Source of the DNA: Octopus vulgaris
Lineage: Eukaryota
DNA: 64,000 nt
NCBI GenBank assembly: GCA_951406725.2
Contig: OX597814.1
Coordinates: forward strand, 48,794,001 to 48,858,000
Direction: 5' to 3'
Shown here piece by piece: positions 1 through 61,295 of the stretch. The position numbers were made by a program, and so were the translations under genes. Position 1 is the stretch's first letter, and each line of letters begins with the position of its first letter. Under the pieces are notes generated by a model. It was given only the letters and a program-made list of their open reading frames with translations, was not told the DNA's origin and made no database searches.

Positions 1-180
1 TTTTCCTCCGTCTTCCCTTCCTTGGATCCTTCCTTTTTCTATATTTCTGACGAAGAGCTCCGCTCGAAACGTTAAATCCTCCGTCTTTCTTTCCTTTCCT
101 GAGTGTCCAATAATACTATACTTGTTCCACGTCCTCGCGTTGTTGTGTTTTCTCTTTGTGCTTTCATGTTTGGATAAACT
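1..180 (+). mobile_element. Non-coding Penelope-pLTR-like repeat (family H1) with minimal hammerhead motif, ending at a (TA)n tract
   Basis: 43-77 reads ATTT-CTGACGAA-GAGC-tcc-GCTC-GAAAC-GTT-AAAT. Homologous copies lie at 52860-53062 (+), 34710-34890 (-) and 61092-61295 (-). Confidence 0.65.
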
Positions 181-195
181 ATATATATATATATT

Positions 196-736
196 TTTTC
201 ATTTCACTAAATTTATCAAGCTTCTGTGTATCTAGTACATACTTCGCCTTTAATGTACTTATATATGAATAATATATGGCCTGTGCTAGAAACACCAGCG
301 ATAATAATTAATTTTATTTTATTGCATTCTGACTTTGTTTACATATTTCTCGATAAATTTTGAGCGTTAGACTATATACCAGAAATCCCTAGTTTGTCGG
401 GTACGTTCTGCGTCTGCGCAGTGATCTGATTAGTTAGAAAGAGCAAATCAGTAGACGCACATGTGTCTATCGAGGTGCGATCTCAAAATAACAGGAATCT
501 TACTGAAGAGCCTACCTGAGTAAATAAATATTATTTTTATTAATGAAATAGGCGAAACTGCAGTCTAAGAAGAACCGAGTTAGTAAAAGTTTTTATTTTC
601 ATTTCACTAAATTTATCAAGCTTCTGTGTATCTAGTACATACTTCGCCTTTAATGTACTTATATATGAATAATATATGGCCTGTGCTAGAAACACCAGCG
701 ATAATAATTAATTTTATTTTATCGCATTCTGACTTT

Positions 737-741
<5 letters not shown>
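196..741 (+). mobile_element. Retrozyme-like non-coding element: 400-nt monomer plus 146-nt terminal direct repeat, between (TA)n tracts
   Basis: 196-341 equals 596-741 with one mismatch (323 vs 723). (TA)n lies at 180-194 and 740-806. A hammerhead is at 498-570 and there is no credible ORF. Confidence 0.7.
498..570 (+). ncRNA. Type-I hammerhead ribozyme
   Basis: Stem I TCTTA (498-502)/TAAGA (566-570); core CTGAAGA (503-509); stem II GCCTA (510-514)/TAGGC (549-553); GAAA (554-557); C-TGCA-G minimal stem III with palindromic loop; GTC cleavage triplet (563-565). Confidence 0.8.
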
Positions 742-813
<72 letters not shown>

Positions 814-8097: not shown

Positions 8098-8292
8098 CTT
8101 TTTTCCTTTTATTCTTTTACTTGTTTCAGTCATTTTGACTGTGGCCATGCTGGAGCATCGCCTTTAGTCGAGCAAGTCGACCCCAGGAATTATTCTTTGT
8201 AAGTCTAGTACTTATTCTATCGGTCTCTTTTGCCGAACCGCTAAGTTACAGGGACGTAAACACACAAGTATCAGTTGTCAAGCGATGTTGGG
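8097..8292 (-). mobile_element. 3' half of CORE-type SINE (family A)
   Basis: Matches the 3' module of the full copies at 22804-23275 and 59056-59445. Confidence 0.85.
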
Positions 8293-9532
8293 ACACCTCC
8301 TCGGCTGTGATTGGCCCTTCACAGCACTCAGCCTCTCGCGCCGAGAGACGCGGGCCGCTAGACAAGAAGTTCCAAAAGGCCTTATCATAATGCAGCGCCC
8401 CGCTCCTCCCAAACAACTCGGCAAAGTGCTTGTAAAACGTCTCACACATCTCGTCCCGTCCATCGACCGAACACTCATTGTCGTCAACGAGAGACCTAAT
8501 TGTGTCATCATTTCCACGCTGGGTTTCTACCGTACGGGCCCATCGGATAACATTAATTCCCTCACGGCCCATTGCGAGCACTTTAGCCCGAACTCTGCAC
8601 TCTTCATGTTTGGCTTTGAGATAACGGTCCAAGGCTGTGATCGCTGCCAAAGTGTGTGATACAGAGCCCAATCTCAACGCCTCTTCTAGGTCCTTAACGA
8701 GTTGCCCTTCTATTCTGGCCTTATCTAGTCTTAGCTGATGGCTAAACCTAATAGACTAAATACGAATGGCTCTCTTGAGAGCGAACCACCATAGGTTATT
8801 AACCACAGCGCCAGTTAACGCCTTCTGTACTAATTCCTTAATCCGGCTACGGTATACCTCGCAAGTCAAAATAGACTTGTTCAGCTTCCAGTAGCCGGAT
8901 TTTCTCTAAATTGTACTATGTCCAGTCTACACTTAACCATTCTATGGTCAGTGTAAGCCACTTGGACAAGCTGTGGACAGCTAAAACTAGCCTACCTTAT
9001 ATAAAAGCTCATGTTATTTAGAACAGTCGTTTATTTGGGTCAAGGATCCTTATTTATAACGCGTCAACGATAACGTTATAGCCTCCAACACCACTAATGT
9101 CTTCGACGTCATGAGAAAGTTCTCTAGGCACCGATAACAATCAGTTTGAAACTCTCTACCACAAGGTGCATAGATCCTGATCAACCCGAAGGCCTTACTG
9201 TTGTATGTCACATCAAGGACGACCAGCCCACCTTCTGGGTCTACATAGACTGTACTTGTCTGCAGAGCCAAGCCTTTTCGGACCACTACTACTTCATCCC
9301 CTCGACCTCCCGTCTGGCTAGGAGACGTGATTTTCTCATAGCCATTCAGGAGGGGTGAGAGAGTTTGTAGACTGTCTAGCTTGGTCTCTGTAGCAACCAT
9401 CACATGCATATCATGTGATCTGAGGTCGTCGAGGAAACAAGCTTGCTTCAACTTCGAGCTCAGACCACGCACATTCAAACACCCATGGTTATGTGTAGCC
9501 ATTACTAAAAAAAAAACAAGTAAAAGAAGCAA
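8293..9532 (-). pseudogene. L1/Tx1-clade LINE ORF2: APE endonuclease and linker, truncated before the RT
   Basis: GCLNVRGL..KQ..FLDDLR...ATETKLDS, IYAP, YTDHRMV, GYWKLNKSIL, EECRVRAK..EG, FYKHFAELF...EAECCEGPITAEEV; frameshifts and stops. Confidence 0.85.
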
Positions 9533-9537
9533 GGGTT

Positions 9538-10811
9538 CTACATACCCTTAACTGATGATGTTGGGGCTGACCTCACAACACGTGAGGCAGCCCCTTCCTT
9601 CTCCTCCTTCCTCAAATAACCTGGAAGGTCCAGGGTCTTCCTGATGGTCTTTGAATGCCTGTTCTTCAGTTGCCTGTATAGGGTTTCCCCTATCCAGGGA
9701 CACCTTTTGCTCAAGTCCTTGTGCTGTGGAAACAGCTTGGTGGTGTGGTGATTCTTTACAATCTCCTCCATATAGCTGTCTCTGGTATCATATTAAACCG
9801 GGATTTTCATTTCATTATCGTTTTCTCCTTCCTTTTTTTCCTTCTGGGACAGTGGGGCGTGGTCGTTTTTTATTTGTGGTGTGATGCTTTAATTTTCCTT
9901 TTCTTTTGTGGGGTATATGTTTGGGGAAGGTGCTAGTGTTCGTTTCCGAACCGCAGTAAACTCCCCCGCGACCACCTCCATGGTGTCATCCAGGAAGTTA
10001 CACATTCTGATGCCATTTTAGAGGGGGTGGGAGTTTTTGCCGTTGTAGGGACCGGTATGTGCATGGGTTGTGGTTTTTTAATATCGTGTTTAGGGGCGAG
10101 CACCACAGTTAAAGGAGTGGGAGTTTTTGTTACTGTAGGGGCTAATGGGTGTGCGAGTTTGGGTTTTTTTTTGTAATTGAGGGACCCGTGTCTGTGCATC
10201 TTTTTTCTTCCATTGTTCACAGTCAACACGAATGTGGCCCTTTTTTCACATTCGTAACACGTGGACTTGTTGCTCTCTACTTGTATTTTGAGGACAATGT
10301 TCTCACTCAAGAGCATTCTGTCTGGAAGCATTTCGATATCTTCCTGAGCCCCCTGAATAATGGCAGAAATGCTCTGTCCGAACTAATTTTGAGGGTCAGA
10401 GCATGTGATCTGAAGGAAGTTCATTTTCTCCGTCCTGGTATTCAGCATTGCGGCCATCACCTCACTTGCATCAATTTCAGGTGGCATCTCTTTCACGTTT
10501 ACACGAACAGTACGTCTTCCCATGTAGGTTGGCAGAAGCACCACTTCCTTCGTTTTCAGGGGGCTCACTGAGTACTCTTGGGCCCTTTCTTCTGATTCAA
10601 ATCTGGCCTCAATTGTGCCATACATTCGGCCCCTCGCTATATATTTTGCATCCTTCCATATTGGGGCCAAGCATTTTTCTATCTTGTTTTGTTGAAAATA
10701 CCTAAACTTCTGCGTTTCTGAACAGTATATTTTAAAAACGACTGTCCGCTTTCTCAAATCTTCGACGTTAGAGGAGGGTGATATCTTTATTTCACCACCC
10801 TCCTCTTTCAT
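9538..10811 (-). pseudogene. L1/Tx1-clade LINE ORF1 (gag-like, CCHC knuckle), frameshifted
   Basis: ORF pieces 10383-10811, 9933-10331 and 9538-9771 lie directly upstream of the APE. CYECEK-/-GHIRVDC (CX2CX4HX4C) is recovered across a frameshift near 10250, followed by a Pro/Thr-rich region. Confidence 0.75.
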
Positions 10812-11770
10812 TCTTCCAATTCAAACTGCTCCAGCCTTTGAAATGTCATCCTTGTTGTATGTGGCCGAATATTAACCTGATGATAGAACACCTTTCGTCT
10901 TGAAACCAAAAGTGATCGTTTTTCTTCTAGCTCTGACTTCATCCACTCAAGCTGCTCGCAGTAGATTTCCCTTGTTTCGTTTGGATTGGGTTTAAAAGTT
11001 CAAAGTGGACTAAACCTTTCATATCCCACCAAATAGATAACAACACTTAACGTGGGTGAAGACCTTTAGCCTTAGGTATTGGTGTTTCTCCTTTCCCTTC
11101 GGCTCTTGGCATTTTTATAGGGAATCCATTCCTCGTCACCAGTCACTATTAGGTCCGAAAATGGTTCATTCGTGAGACGTGACAACAAAGAAGAGCGTAC
11201 ATTCACTCTCTGCATATGATTAGACTCGGAAAGTTTGTCAGGAACCTGTTGACCCAATTTGCTGACTCTTCCGATGGCATAGAGATGTCGATAAATAGTT
11301 GAATGACCAAATCCAAACTTCTCTGCTAGTTCAACTGTTACGATGGGATTTAGTCCCACCAGGGTTTGCAGGTCGTCCTCGTCGAGCTCTAGAGATCTTC
11401 CAGGACGAGGCTTGTCTTCTAGGCTGTAGTTTCCGGCTTGGAATTTCTGGAACCACCGTTGACACCAGCTTACGCTTATTGTCCAATCCCCATATACTGC
11501 ATTAATATTTCTCGCACCTTCCGCTGCGTGTTGCCTTTATTGAACTCATAAAGCAAAGTACGCCAAATATGCTCCTTTGTCACTTGCATTATAGCTTTGA
11601 AAAAGTAGCTTTTAAAATCGAACTGCACACTTCAAAACATGCACTAAGAATAAGGACACGTTAAAATTACTACCTGTTTTTATAGCAAGTTGATGCAAGA
11701 AGTTTATCCTGTCCTCCTCCGATTTTTAGTTCATGCAAGTGAAAAAACCGCATTAGTTATGGGTTGACTA
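10812..11770 (-). mobile_element. Mariner transposon remnant (left end and most of transposase), abutting the Tx1-like LINE
   Basis: LLYEFNKG, ELAEKFGFGHSTIYRHL, QVPDKL (WVPHEL), IVTGDEEWI (TGDEKW), IYCEQL, FYHQVNIRPHT (HDNARPH); TIR-like end ~11745-11770. Confidence 0.9.
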
Positions 11771-13816: not shown

Positions 13817-14613
13817 CGAGGTCTAATCAATAAGTATCCGGATTGTTGCCATAGTAATGAAGCTAAAGAATGCAGCGTACAGCTGCTTGGCAAAGATTGA
13901 CATTGAACTTTGCTGTGCATGCGCACTAAGTATTAACGTTCTAGCTCACTTCCGCTGTTTACAGCAGTGCTTGGAAAGAGGGTGTATAGCATGTGACCGT
14001 CGCATTGATCATGGAAGTTGCAGAAAGTGCATGGAGAGGAGTGTATCAACCGCGCACAAGCGTACGAGTGGTTCAGACGTTTCAAAAATGGCCAAAAAAT
14101 GTCGATAGTGACGAACGTTCTGGGAGACCCGCAACCAGCAGAACTGAGAAAAACATCGCAGGTATGCATACAGCTGAGGGAAATCGTTGAATCACCATCT
14201 GTGAGTTATCAGAGGATGTGCAGATTAGTTACGGATGCGTGTCAACCAAGTCTGTGTCAAAAACTGCTTTCAGCTGACCAAAATGACACTCGGGTTTCAG
14301 TTGCACAAGATCTCCTTCATTGTGTGGAGAACGATGAAAACTTTTTGAAAACCTTGCGTCGGCCACTGAGCAGGTATCGCCAAGCTTTTGGCAAAATTTG
14401 ATGCAGATTCTCTGCTCAGCTTTCTTTGTCATGGCCAACGCTACACATGTTCTTTCCAAGTACTGCTATAAACAGCGGGAGTGAGATAGAACGTTAAAAC
14501 TTAGTACGCATGCGCAGCAGAGTTCAAGATCAATCTGTGCCCAGCGCCTTTACGCTGCGTGCTTTAGCTTCGTTACTATGACAACAGTCCGGATGCTTAT
14601 TGATCGGGCTATG
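13817..14613. mobile_element. Mariner-derived internally deleted fold-back element
   Basis: TA|CGAGGTCTAATCAATAAGTATCCGG ... CCGGATGCTTATTGATCGGGCTATG|TA with long TIRs; transposase pieces MQKVHGEECINRAQAYEWFRRFKNG (+) and EQRICIKFCQKLG (-). Confidence 0.85.
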
Positions 14614-20659: not shown

Positions 20660-21352
20660 CGAGGGGAAGTTAAAAATTATCCGCACTTTCACCATAACAT
20701 ACCTTTATTATTGTCACACTGCCTTCTGTGCATGCATGCTTATAGTTGGTACTATTGTGCTCTCGTGATCGAAGTTCGAGCCTGATTGCGCTATTTTCCT
20801 TTCTGGCTTTACAGTGTAAGCATGGCCGCTACACTATGGATGTGCACCAAAGAAGAACAAAGAGCAGTGATCCGAGAGATGGTAATGGTGAACCGGTTCA
20901 CCATTACCATCTCTCGAGCTGGCTGAATCTTCTCGTCAGTGGTGGAGGTTGATGGGCATCCTGCTCCCTCTTCATGCATCACGCTTGTCCGGCCACTTTT
21001 AAACTTCTCGATCCACTTATACTCACTTCTACGCGGCAGTGCACTGTCCCCGTATTGAGCAAAAAAGCTTCTGATGAATTCTAGTACCTTCCAACAAGAC
21101 AAATAGGATCCTTCCAAACCTTCCAACAAGACAAATAGGATCATTGCTCTTTGTTCTTCTTTGGTGCACGTTGCTAGTGGAGCGGCCATGCTTACACTGT
21201 AAAGCCAGAAAAAAAATATGGCGCGATCAGTCTAAAAGTTCAAGCACATGATCAAAATAGTATCAACTTACAAGAATGCATGCGCAGAAGGCTGTGTCAC
21301 AATAATAAAGATATGTTATGGCGAAAGTGCGGTTATTTTTTACTTCCCCTCG
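20660..21352 (-). mobile_element. Mariner-derived MITE-like element with ~215-bp TIRs
   Basis: TA|CGAGGGGAAGTTAAAAATTATCCGCACTTTC ... GAAAGTGCGGTTATTTTTTACTTCCCCTCG; ORF 20809-21189 (EEQRAMILF...YGDSALPRRSEYKWIEKFKSGRTSV) is a mariner HTH. Confidence 0.9.
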
Positions 21353-24487: not shown

Positions 24488-24681
24488 ATTTCCGAGTATC
24501 ATCGTGTAACAGTCATTGAAACAGGTGTAGAGATGGTTAGAGTTTCAAAGTATTGCGGTTTCATCTCCCTCTTCATCATTCAAATTTCCGAGTATCATCG
24601 TGTAACAGTCATTGAAACAGGTGTAGAGATGGTTAGAGTTTCAAAGTATTGCGGTTTCATCTCCCTCTTCATCATTCAAAT
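24488..24681. repeat. Perfect 96-bp tandem duplication
   Basis: 24488-24583 equals 24584-24679. Confidence 0.95.
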
Positions 24682-28304: not shown

Positions 28305-29036
28305 ATTACTGCTGTTGTTTGCCAACAACAACTTCCGGCGGTATATATTTCGTTTGTCACTGTTATTTATGACATATTTCATCTCAGTTACGTTCGTATG
28401 AATAAACGAGTGTATCTGAAGCACGTTTACTCCATGACACCACCATAATCGTTCGTGCATTTCTACTGCTTTTAGTTTTTTTTCCTGTTTTCCTGAAATT
28501 TTTTGTCCCCTTACCCCTCCCCCTCCAATTTCTTCATTTTTCACTTTTTTCCTAACTCTAACCCTAAAACCCCAACCCTAACCCTAAAACCCCAGCCCTA
28601 CCCTAACCGTAACCCTAAAACCCTAAAACCCTAACCCTAAAACCCTAACCCTAACCCTAAAACCCTAACCCTAACCCTAAAACCTAACCCTAACCCTAAA
28701 ACCCTAACCTTAACCCTAACCCTAAAACCCTAACCCTAACCCTAAAACCCTAACCCCAACCCTAAAACCCTAACCCTATGAAGAAAAGCTAAAACCAGTA
28801 CGAACGCACGAACGATGTCATAAATAACAGTGACAAACGAAATATACACCGCCGATAGTTGTTGACAAACAACAGCAGTAATTTTATTCAGATGAATACA
28901 CGAAATAACTTCGAAAATAGAAACTTTTCTCAACAAAAGATGTTCTATATGATACATTCTACCAGTTTACGAAGTTTCAAAGTGTTTAGTTAAAGAAAAT
29001 TAATTAATCGAGCTGCCCATCAAAAGGAAAAGATCC
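28305..29036. mobile_element. GGATC-terminated fold-back MITE (left arm truncated) carrying a telomere-like array
   Basis: 28305-28375 is the reverse complement of ~28815-28885. The right end ATTCTACCAGTTTACGAAGTTTCAAAGTGTTTAGTTA...GAAAAGATCC matches the ends of 44237-45861. Confidence 0.7.
28550..28778. repeat. Interstitial telomere-like repeat (CCCTAA and CCCTAAAA units)
   Basis: Mixed 6- and 8-bp units, often as the 20-bp unit CCCTAAAA-CCCTAA-CCCTAA. Confidence 0.9.
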
Positions 29037-34709: not shown

Positions 34710-34890
34710 ATTCGAAAAACAGAGGAAAAGAAAATGAAAAAACAAATAAACGTGAGGACGTAGCAGAAGCAATGTATTAATATGACACTCGGAGAAAGAA
34801 GAGAATTGTTGTTTTACGTTTCAAGCATGGCTCTTCGTCAGAAACAGGAAAGACCAAAAGGAAAGAAGGAAGAAGGAAAAATTGCCAACA
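34710..34890 (-). mobile_element. Family H1 repeat with minimal hammerhead
   Basis: 34811-34845 (-) reads GTTT-CTGACGAA-GAGC-cat-GCTT-GAAAC-GTA-AAAC. Confidence 0.65.
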
Positions 34891-49417: not shown

Positions 49418-49463
<46 letters not shown>

Positions 49464-49485
49464 CTTTTGTTATCTTACCGTTTTA

Positions 49486-49528
<43 letters not shown>

Positions 49529-49550
49529 CTTTTGTTATCTTACCGTTTTA

Positions 49551-49610
<60 letters not shown>

Positions 49611-52861: not shown

Positions 52862-53062
52862 CCTCGTGAGCACCGCCAGCAATTTTTTTTCCTCTGTCTT
52901 CCCTTCTCGGGATCTTTCCTTCTCCTTTGTTTCCGACGAAGAGCTCCGCTCGAAACGTTTAACCCTCCTTCTTCCCTTCTTTCCTGAGCGTCCAATAATA
53001 CTTTATTTGTTCCACGTCCTCGCGTTGCTTTTTTTTTTGTGTTTTCTTGTTTGGATTAACTT
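52860..53062 (+). mobile_element. Family H1 repeat with minimal hammerhead variant, ending at (TA)n
   Basis: 52929-52963 reads GTTT-CCGACGAA-GAGC-tcc-GCTC-GAAAC-GTT-TAAC; homologous to 1-180. Confidence 0.65.
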
Positions 53063-53094
53063 TATATATATTTATTTATTTATTTATTTATTTA

Positions 53095-55314: not shown

Positions 55315-55540
55315 ACGGGAAGGTTCACGAAAATAAACAAAAGACGAAGGCAGGTGGAGTACAAACAAACAAACAAATGTATTAGTATAGCACTCAGGAA
55401 TAGAAATAGAAAAAGTCTTTTACGTTTCGAGCCTACGCTCTTCGACAGAAAGATACACAGAAAAAAACAAGGAGAGAAACAAGGAGAGAGAAAAGGGAGA
55501 GAAAAAAAGGAGAGAAAAAATGCGTGTAGGAGCTAACGAT
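55315..55540 (-). mobile_element. Family H2 repeat with minimal hammerhead variant, (TA)n-flanked
   Basis: 55417-55452 (-) reads CTTT-CTGTCGAA-GAGC-gtag-GCTC-GAAAC-GTA-AAAG. Copies at 63262-63420, 21382-21448 (partial) and 35620-35725. Confidence 0.65.
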
Positions 55541-61062: not shown

Positions 61063-61091
61063 ATGTATGTATGTATATATATATATATATA

Positions 61092-61295
61092 GGTTAATCC
61101 AAACGGGAAAACAGAAAAAACAACAACACGTGGAACAATTACAGTATTATTATTATTAGGCGCTCAGGAAAATGGAAGAAGGAGGGTATGACGTTTCGAG
61201 CGGAGGTCTTCGTCGGAGACATAGGAGAAAGAAAGATCCCGAGACGGGAGGACAGAGGAAAAAAAATTGCAGGTAGTCTTCACGAGGTCACATAC
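61092..61295 (-). mobile_element. Family H1 repeat with degenerate minimal hammerhead
   Basis: 61186-61220 (-) reads GTCT-CCGACGAA-GACC-tcc-GCTC-GAAAC-GTC-ATAC; 3' end abuts (TA)n at ~61075-61091. Confidence 0.6.

Follow-up and report, generated by a model that had tools for sequence, protein, structure and literature searches.

A window of 64,000 nucleotides of Octopus vulgaris DNA contains, close to its left edge, somewhat more than one copy of a 400-nt unit that carries a hammerhead ribozyme motif and lies between two (TA)n tracts, and this locus raises the question of which RNA template and which enzyme left such a greater-than-unit-length copy in the genome. A first-pass annotation had taken the insert as the footprint of a 400-nt circular RNA copied by rolling-circle reverse transcription. 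The features on which the answer depends are listed in Table 1, in coordinates of the window.

Anatomy of the insert and its (TA)n setting

The segments 196-341 and 596-741 are the same sequence at a period of 400, with the single mismatch T323/C723 and with the identity ending at 195 and 342, and blastn between the two gave 99.3% over 146 nt, in good agreement with the 146-bp direct repeat of exact period, bounded by (TA)n on both sides, that had been described in the first-pass annotation. The boundaries of the insert are given to ±2 nt, as each end passes into an A/T run, and any target-site duplication is unreadable inside (TA)n. The one mismatch in 146 nt favours a recent age, as was proposed before, and the insert is likely to be a young 1.36-unit copy, its partial upstream unit presumably representing the 5′-truncated end of the cDNA.

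Table 1. Coordinates of the insert, its ribozyme motif and the neighbouring repeat family in the window
Feature	Position	Strand	Remark
Whole insert	196..741	+	546 nt = 1.36 units of 400 nt
Partial upstream unit, 146 nt	196..341	+	T323 is the sole difference from 596-741
Full 400-nt unit	342..741	+	33.5% GC
Head-to-tail junction	340..346	+	6/7 positions match the (TA)n target at 740-746
(TA)7, left part of target microsatellite, also tail of older flanking element	180..193	.	
(TA)33, right part of target microsatellite	740..805	.	
Type I hammerhead motif	498..570	+	all core residues and three helices; descriptor match
Self-complementary 8-mer, predicted intermolecular helix III of dimeric hammerhead	557..564	+	duplex -11.1 kcal/mol
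Predicted self-cleavage site after GUC	565..566	+	176 nt from the 3′ end of the insert
3′ end of second, older repeat family, PLE pseudo-LTR type; runs off window start	1..179	+	
Minimal hammerhead of flanking element; predicted cut after 73	43..77	+	second descriptor
Flank-family copy	34725-34844	-	
Flank-family copy	52887-53075	+	
Flank-family copy	55372-55505	-	
Flank-family copy	61077-61262	-	

A second copy of the 400-nt unit was absent from the 64-kb window by blastn. When the unit was read as a circle in six frames, the longest stop-free stretch was 55 codons, and neither the unit nor its flanks hold a non-repetitive frame of at least 90 codons. Since an ORF for reverse transcriptase (RT) or GIY-YIG endonuclease was found neither in the unit and its flanks nor, as a Pfam domain, in any of the 19 window ORFs scanned (drawn from 49 ORFs of at least 120 codons), an autonomous Penelope-like element (PLE) was rejected as the identity of the insert. 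Folded as a circle, the unit RNA is 63% paired at -81.4 kcal/mol (z -1.4 against 100 shuffles) and is not unusually structured. The hairpin at 409-459 (-16.6 kcal/mol) was discarded as a conserved structure, common variants at 411 and 451 unpairing its bases with no compensating variant, and Rfam miRNA and snoRNA matches in 150-820 were set aside as low-complexity or chance.

The sequence to the left of the insert belongs to another and older family, for which we identified five copies in 64 kb, the four beyond 1-179 being 70-84% identical, and no meaningful similarity was detected between the element at 1-179 and the 400-nt unit. Its hammerhead motif at 43-77 has 4-bp stems I and II, an extra A after the core and a palindromic centre, with helix III missing, an architecture like that described for the minimal hammerheads of PLEs (PMC4209133). 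The descriptor for this form gave three matches in the window (43-77, 498-570 and 34810-34846) versus one match in 100 shuffled windows; within the flank family the core is intact at 43-77 and 34810-34846 and altered in the other three copies. Three aligned copies share one 3′ end point and all (3/3) then run into (TA)n, while the remaining two adjoin microsatellites containing (TA)n, so that the 400-nt element appears to have inserted where an older PLE-type fragment tails off into (TA)n. Through the flank family, the window itself thus offers an example of 3′ ends fixed within (TA)n, and the members of this abundant family are likely to be PLE pseudo-LTR stubs or, alternatively, to form a second family of non-autonomous elements.

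The hammerhead motif and its repeat family

The motif at 498-570 is built of stem I (498-502/566-570) and stem II (510-514/549-553), 5 bp each and the latter around a 34-nt insert in loop 2, of the core segments CUGAAGA (503-509), GAAAC (554-558) and GUC (563-565), and of a stem III consisting of A557-U564 plus one C-G pair, closed by the loop UGCA (559-562). The complete type I hammerhead quoted inside the monomer by the first-pass annotation was recovered by the descriptor, and in addition Rfam Hammerhead_1 (RF00163) matches 497-571 with 30.6 bits and E 1.5e-5, under the gathering score of 34; the whole-window Rfam scan at gathering threshold gave no match. At chance level the descriptor gave 2 matches in 20,000 shuffled 400-nt units, and single matches in 2 of 20 shuffled 64-kb windows versus one match in the real window. 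The active fold lies 5.9 kcal/mol above the predicted minimum locally and 9.4 kcal/mol above it in the circle (range 5.9-10.5). The assignment of stem III to the dimer type with a palindromic tetraloop was likewise borne out, 557-564 being a perfect 8-nt palindrome for which an intermolecular duplex is predicted (Table 1), and the dimeric mode of hammerhead cleavage is known (PMC4209133, PMC7229834).

The duplicated 146 nt do not include the ribozyme, so that the insert carries only one, and with a single ribozyme it should be unable to release a monomer on its own; such a copy would be a dead end for circle production. With 1.36 units and one ribozyme, it is also not an 'active' copy by the two-or-more-ribozyme criterion given for retrozymes in 10.64898/2026.07.22.740005. 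The 5′ end of the insert at 196 is 30 nt downstream of the would-be cut site of the preceding unit, so that a second ribozyme is narrowly missed, an observation made post hoc and on one copy. A viroid-like agent was rejected, because genomic DNA of animal type surrounds the insert and no ribozyme was found when the unit was scanned on its minus strand.

Using the permuted unit 250-649 as a query for public sequencing runs, we found it present in 20 of the 24 runs listed, from 9 studies and 4 organism labels; one of these runs may be the source of the window itself. Contigs were placed on the unit for four of the 24 runs: X1 and X4, probably DNA and with two organism labels; X13, guessed to be RNA (one of six such among the runs listed) and not counted as transcription; and X23, raw polyA reads under another organism label, which gave 0 unit reads in the 12% of the run that was read and is no test of expression. 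Among the runs that contain the unit, none is labelled as RNA. In X1, X4 and X13 the contigs (250, 332 and 64, respectively) fill all 29 of 29 bins of the unit, with single-contig depths of hundreds to thousands that indicate a repeat and not a copy number. As many as 83 of the 250 contigs of X1 are less than 95% alike to the unit, indicating that subfamilies exist. The 400-nt unit is a multi-copy, heterogeneous repeat family.

Variants at a level of at least 3% were noted at 35 places of the unit among those listed, of which only 549 falls within the 39 core and stem positions of the hammerhead, the depletion being statistically weak (p=0.12 with the remaining unit positions as reference, and p=0.03 with 342-595, a reference chosen post hoc). 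Just outside, the change A>T at 571 accounts for about a third of the summed depth in X1 and X4 and would add a pair to stem I, and loose ends before 553/554 in X1, X4 and X13 point to a subfamily with another 3′ arm of stem II. The segment 596-741 (= 196-341) is poorer in family variants (4 of 146 places against 31 of 254 elsewhere in the unit, p=0.0008), possibly as a region recognized by the helper and possibly as an effect of contig filtering.

Contig X4-21 (422-575, depth 777, 15 differences) joins the 5′ part of the unit straight to the ribozyme, and since X13-12 and X13-13 link the two in the same way, the compact layout is present in other samples. The head-to-tail junction at 341/342 is bridged by X13-8, the only bridging contig among those listed (31-letter rule). 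Contigs running on into sequence unlike the unit make up 0-1% in the DNA-type runs and 16% in X13, and the summed depth of segment 342-445 is of the same order as that of the 3′ segment; diverged contigs with the compact layout, together with the few run-ons in the DNA-type runs, argue for a self-contained unit. Among the 24 of 652 contig pieces listed, all contigs being short, there is no piece that spans the unit, and neither loose ends in (TA)n nor peaks of contig starts or ends are seen among these pieces and the 18 of 66 loose ends listed. One contig of X13 (depth 49) connects 328 with 489 through an unknown intervening sequence, perhaps from a shorter or differently filled subfamily. Two metagenome and two viral pattern matches (L001-L004) were rejected as chance, with only 13-20 nt alike and without the hammerhead helices.

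Relation to known retrozymes and Penelope-like elements

Non-LTR retrozymes have been described as non-autonomous derivatives of PLEs (10.64898/2026.07.22.740005), with a unit of about 170-400 nt, a GC content below 45% and a type I hammerhead (PMC7229834). By size, GC content, ribozyme, non-coding nature and repeat-family character, the present insert is likely to belong to such a family, with a predicted cleavage site and a possible circular RNA form. The closest system in the parts of the literature covered is that of the mussel Mytilus galloprovincialis (PMC7229834), where units of 350-390 bp, against 400 here, are likewise low in GC, ORF-less and arranged head-to-tail, with one type I hammerhead per unit in a multi-copy and heterogeneous family. 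The likeness is one of description, circles and cleavage having been shown in the mussel, whereas the motif here is known from its sequence. Unlike the mussel family, our unit has the weak one-pair stem III with palindromic tetraloop of the axolotl HHR_Amex1 (PMC7229834), and it differs also in the 34-nt insert in stem II and in its occurrence at this locus as a dispersed 1.36-mer bordered cleanly by (TA)n.

Among PLEs, the hallmarks are partial tandems and 5′ truncation, and targeting of (TA)n is found in several clades (PMC8557442): (TA)n is the insertion site of 26 of 27 listed Hydra-clade families, most of which are tabulated with canonical hammerheads, Naiads often target (TA)n, and Neptune has a microsatellite bias. 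The Hydra (e.g. Hydra-1_Obim) and Neptune elements (Craig et al. 2021, PMC8557442) combine (TA)n targeting with hammerheads. With non-autonomous derivatives of PLEs the insert has in common the partial tandem in (TA)n and the hammerhead near the 3′ end (PMC8557442). In contrast to the Hydra elements it lacks an RT/GIY-YIG ORF, and only the ribozyme core was seen in common; the Hydra ribozymes tabulated in the same source have a short loop 2 and a stem III of 3-4 bp, against the 34-nt insert and the one-pair stem III here. The retrozymes of Xenopus (10.64898/2026.07.22.740005) and MRC1 of Chlamydomonas (PMC8557442) are, as here, ORF-less, with pLTR-like repeats and head-to-tail insertions, and both share the feature of dispersed monomers beside clustered multimers; they are tied by sequence to an autonomous family, and the 400-nt unit is as yet not.

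The plant LTR retrozymes (10.64898/2026.07.22.740005, PMC7761336) also have a terminal direct repeat and a hammerhead-made circle, the latter a possibility here, but they carry type III hammerheads inside both LTRs, a PBS, a PPT and 4-bp target-site duplications. With its type I hammerhead outside the repeat, the insert was therefore rejected as a plant-type LTR retrozyme. No report of a cephalopod retrozyme was found in the literature searched, which covered few subscription papers or repeat databases, and the consulted text of the Octopus vulgaris repeat paper and its supplement (PMC13282606) makes no mention of ribozymes.

Origin of the insert

We consider it quite likely that the insert is a 5′-truncated, internally primed and PLE-driven insertion of a non-LTR retrozyme family, for which the RT-endonuclease of a (TA)n-targeting PLE was probably responsible. 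In the pathway that we propose, tandem donor arrays elsewhere would be transcribed on the + strand, neighbouring hammerheads would pair via their palindromic stem III, self-cleavage after C565 would follow, and the resulting 400-nt monomers would be circularized by a host ligase. After nicking of a (TA)n tract by the PLE protein, cDNA synthesis would be primed at a single site within the RNA, the 341/342 junction, with copying of one full unit and of a further 146 nt before the stop at 196. We infer the start of reverse transcription at 741 because target-primed copying begins on the 3′ side of the RNA; this start being 176 nt from the cut site, priming would be internal and the template would exceed a single cut linear monomer in length, barring a jump of the enzyme.

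Since 10 of the 400 seven-mers of the unit match (TA)n as well as 340-346 does, and since priming by the one PLE studied, Anolis Poseidon, is independent of target homology (PMC11167929), the (TA)n likeness of the junction is only a lead. As to the helper, four short motifs of the unit were absent (0/4) from one supplement of PMC8557442 with the consensuses of Naiad, Chlamys and Hydra elements, and inspection by eye of Hydra-1_Obim, in the same source, showed that its 3′ end has only the ribozyme core in common with the unit. According to a 2020 review, no conserved motif reveals the priming site or the helper of animal retrozymes (PMC7761336).

For the template, we hold a tentative and narrow preference, somewhat short of an even chance, for a circle over an uncut linear multimer. 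A circle fits the footprint by analogy, as it is the abundant form of retrozymes elsewhere and would explain the near-identical repeats; circles have been shown in coral, mussel and axolotl (PMC7229834), where they make up from about half to more than 95% of the retrozyme RNA. Of the reading given in the first-pass annotation, what stands is a hammerhead-bearing copy of more than unit length that looks reverse-transcribed; such a footprint is not diagnostic of a circle, since a purified PLE protein begins reverse transcription in vitro at fixed internal sites of uncut RNA with no need of the ribozyme (PMC11167929). The reading is also neither unique nor new: a circle as template for reverse transcription beyond unit length was put forward in 2014 with regard to PLEs (PMC4209133) and in 2020 with regard to retrozymes (PMC7229834; PMC7761336). 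The most specific version, in which a 400-nt circular RNA gave the insert directly as rolling-circle cDNA, with priming at a fixed (TA)-like site by the enzyme of a (TA)n-targeting PLE, is a possible reading that we regard with some doubt.

A possibility to be taken seriously, albeit one that we would not expect to hold, is that the same family and helper used as template an uncut linear multimer transcribed from a tandem donor array, the cDNA starting internally at 741 and being 5′-truncated at 196. Anolis Poseidon initiates internally, its ribozyme mutants leave insertion unchanged and uncut RNA is its main substrate (PMC11167929); partial tandems are the usual product of PLEs (PMC8557442); and ribozymes with a one-pair stem III cut poorly as monomers, 6% in axolotl (PMC7229834). 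Of the Xenopus retrozyme dimers, 8 of 9 remained uncleaved in vitro (10.64898/2026.07.22.740005). The ribozyme of our unit is predicted to be weak too, its active fold lying 5.9-10.5 kcal/mol above the minimum. The position of the 5′ end only 30 nt past the previous cut site would suit a once-cut linear RNA, with a chance of about 30/400 for this one copy, noted post hoc. Against a linear multimer stands the predominance of circles in the three animals above, and the two repeats, in a diverse family, differ at 1 of 146 places by a change that is not among the listed variants, as expected from two passes over one molecule. Because internal priming on an uncut multimer followed by 5′ truncation leaves the same shape, a fixed 3′ end and not free permutation is to be expected; the check for circularly permuted end points suggested in the first-pass annotation was probably mis-aimed, as circle and linear multimer alike predict a fixed 3′ end with variable 5′ ends.

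We regard as unlikely an origin of the insert from one autonomous PLE, of which it would be a remnant or an internally deleted form (pseudo-LTR and untranslated regions) spread as ordinary truncated copies and not as a self-contained retrozyme, even though the hammerhead near the 3′ end, the (TA)n target and the partial tandem all resemble PLE ends (PMC8557442), retrozymes and pLTRs are related in Xenopus (10.64898/2026.07.22.740005), and X13 contains both the 16% of contigs that continue unlike the unit and the one joining 328 to 489. The near absence of run-ons from the DNA-type runs, the comparable depth of 342-445, the compact layout kept by diverged contigs and the lack of any longer reading frame in the unit and its flanks all speak against such a remnant. 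Assembly is difficult for repeats enclosed by (TA)n tracts, and another (TA)n tract of the window holds a suspicious exact 65-nt repeat, so that a later DNA-level duplication of 146 nt in a single 400-nt copy, or an assembly error beside the microsatellite, had to be considered as well. This is very improbable, for one base differs between the two repeats and the head-to-tail junction occurs also in an independent run (X13-8).

The class itself is known, and the insert is valuable as a clean test case, the return of animal retrozymes to DNA and the enzyme used being still proposals (10.64898/2026.07.22.740005, PMC7229834, PMC7761336). A young, dispersed and sharply bounded (TA)n family offers a test by sequence, in which units identical within an insertion would indicate a circle, while differences of the donor array copied in order would indicate a linear multimer. 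If the direct rolling-circle reading is true, young copies would tell where an animal retrozyme is primed and which helper it uses, and the circle model would become testable from genome sequence alone.

Elsewhere in the window, a (TA)n tract at 49423-49610 is interrupted twice by the same 29-nt insert, with a period of 65 nt, either tiny truncated inserts or an assembly repeat. Broken frames at 8168-10820 (-) resemble by eye a decayed LINE with ORF1-like and endonuclease-like pieces, with no Pfam match and no homologue found, and remnants of mariner transposase (HTH_48) were detected at 11075-11536 (-), 14009-14398 (+) and 20812-21231 (-), two of them above cut-off. The segment 24392-24769 (+) gave a weak Pfam match (E 0.002, below threshold) to a family of viral fusion glycoproteins, probably by chance, and is overlapped by an exact 96-nt duplication at 24488-24681. 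A degenerate array of telomere-like hexamers, about 35 copies, occupies 28551-28778.
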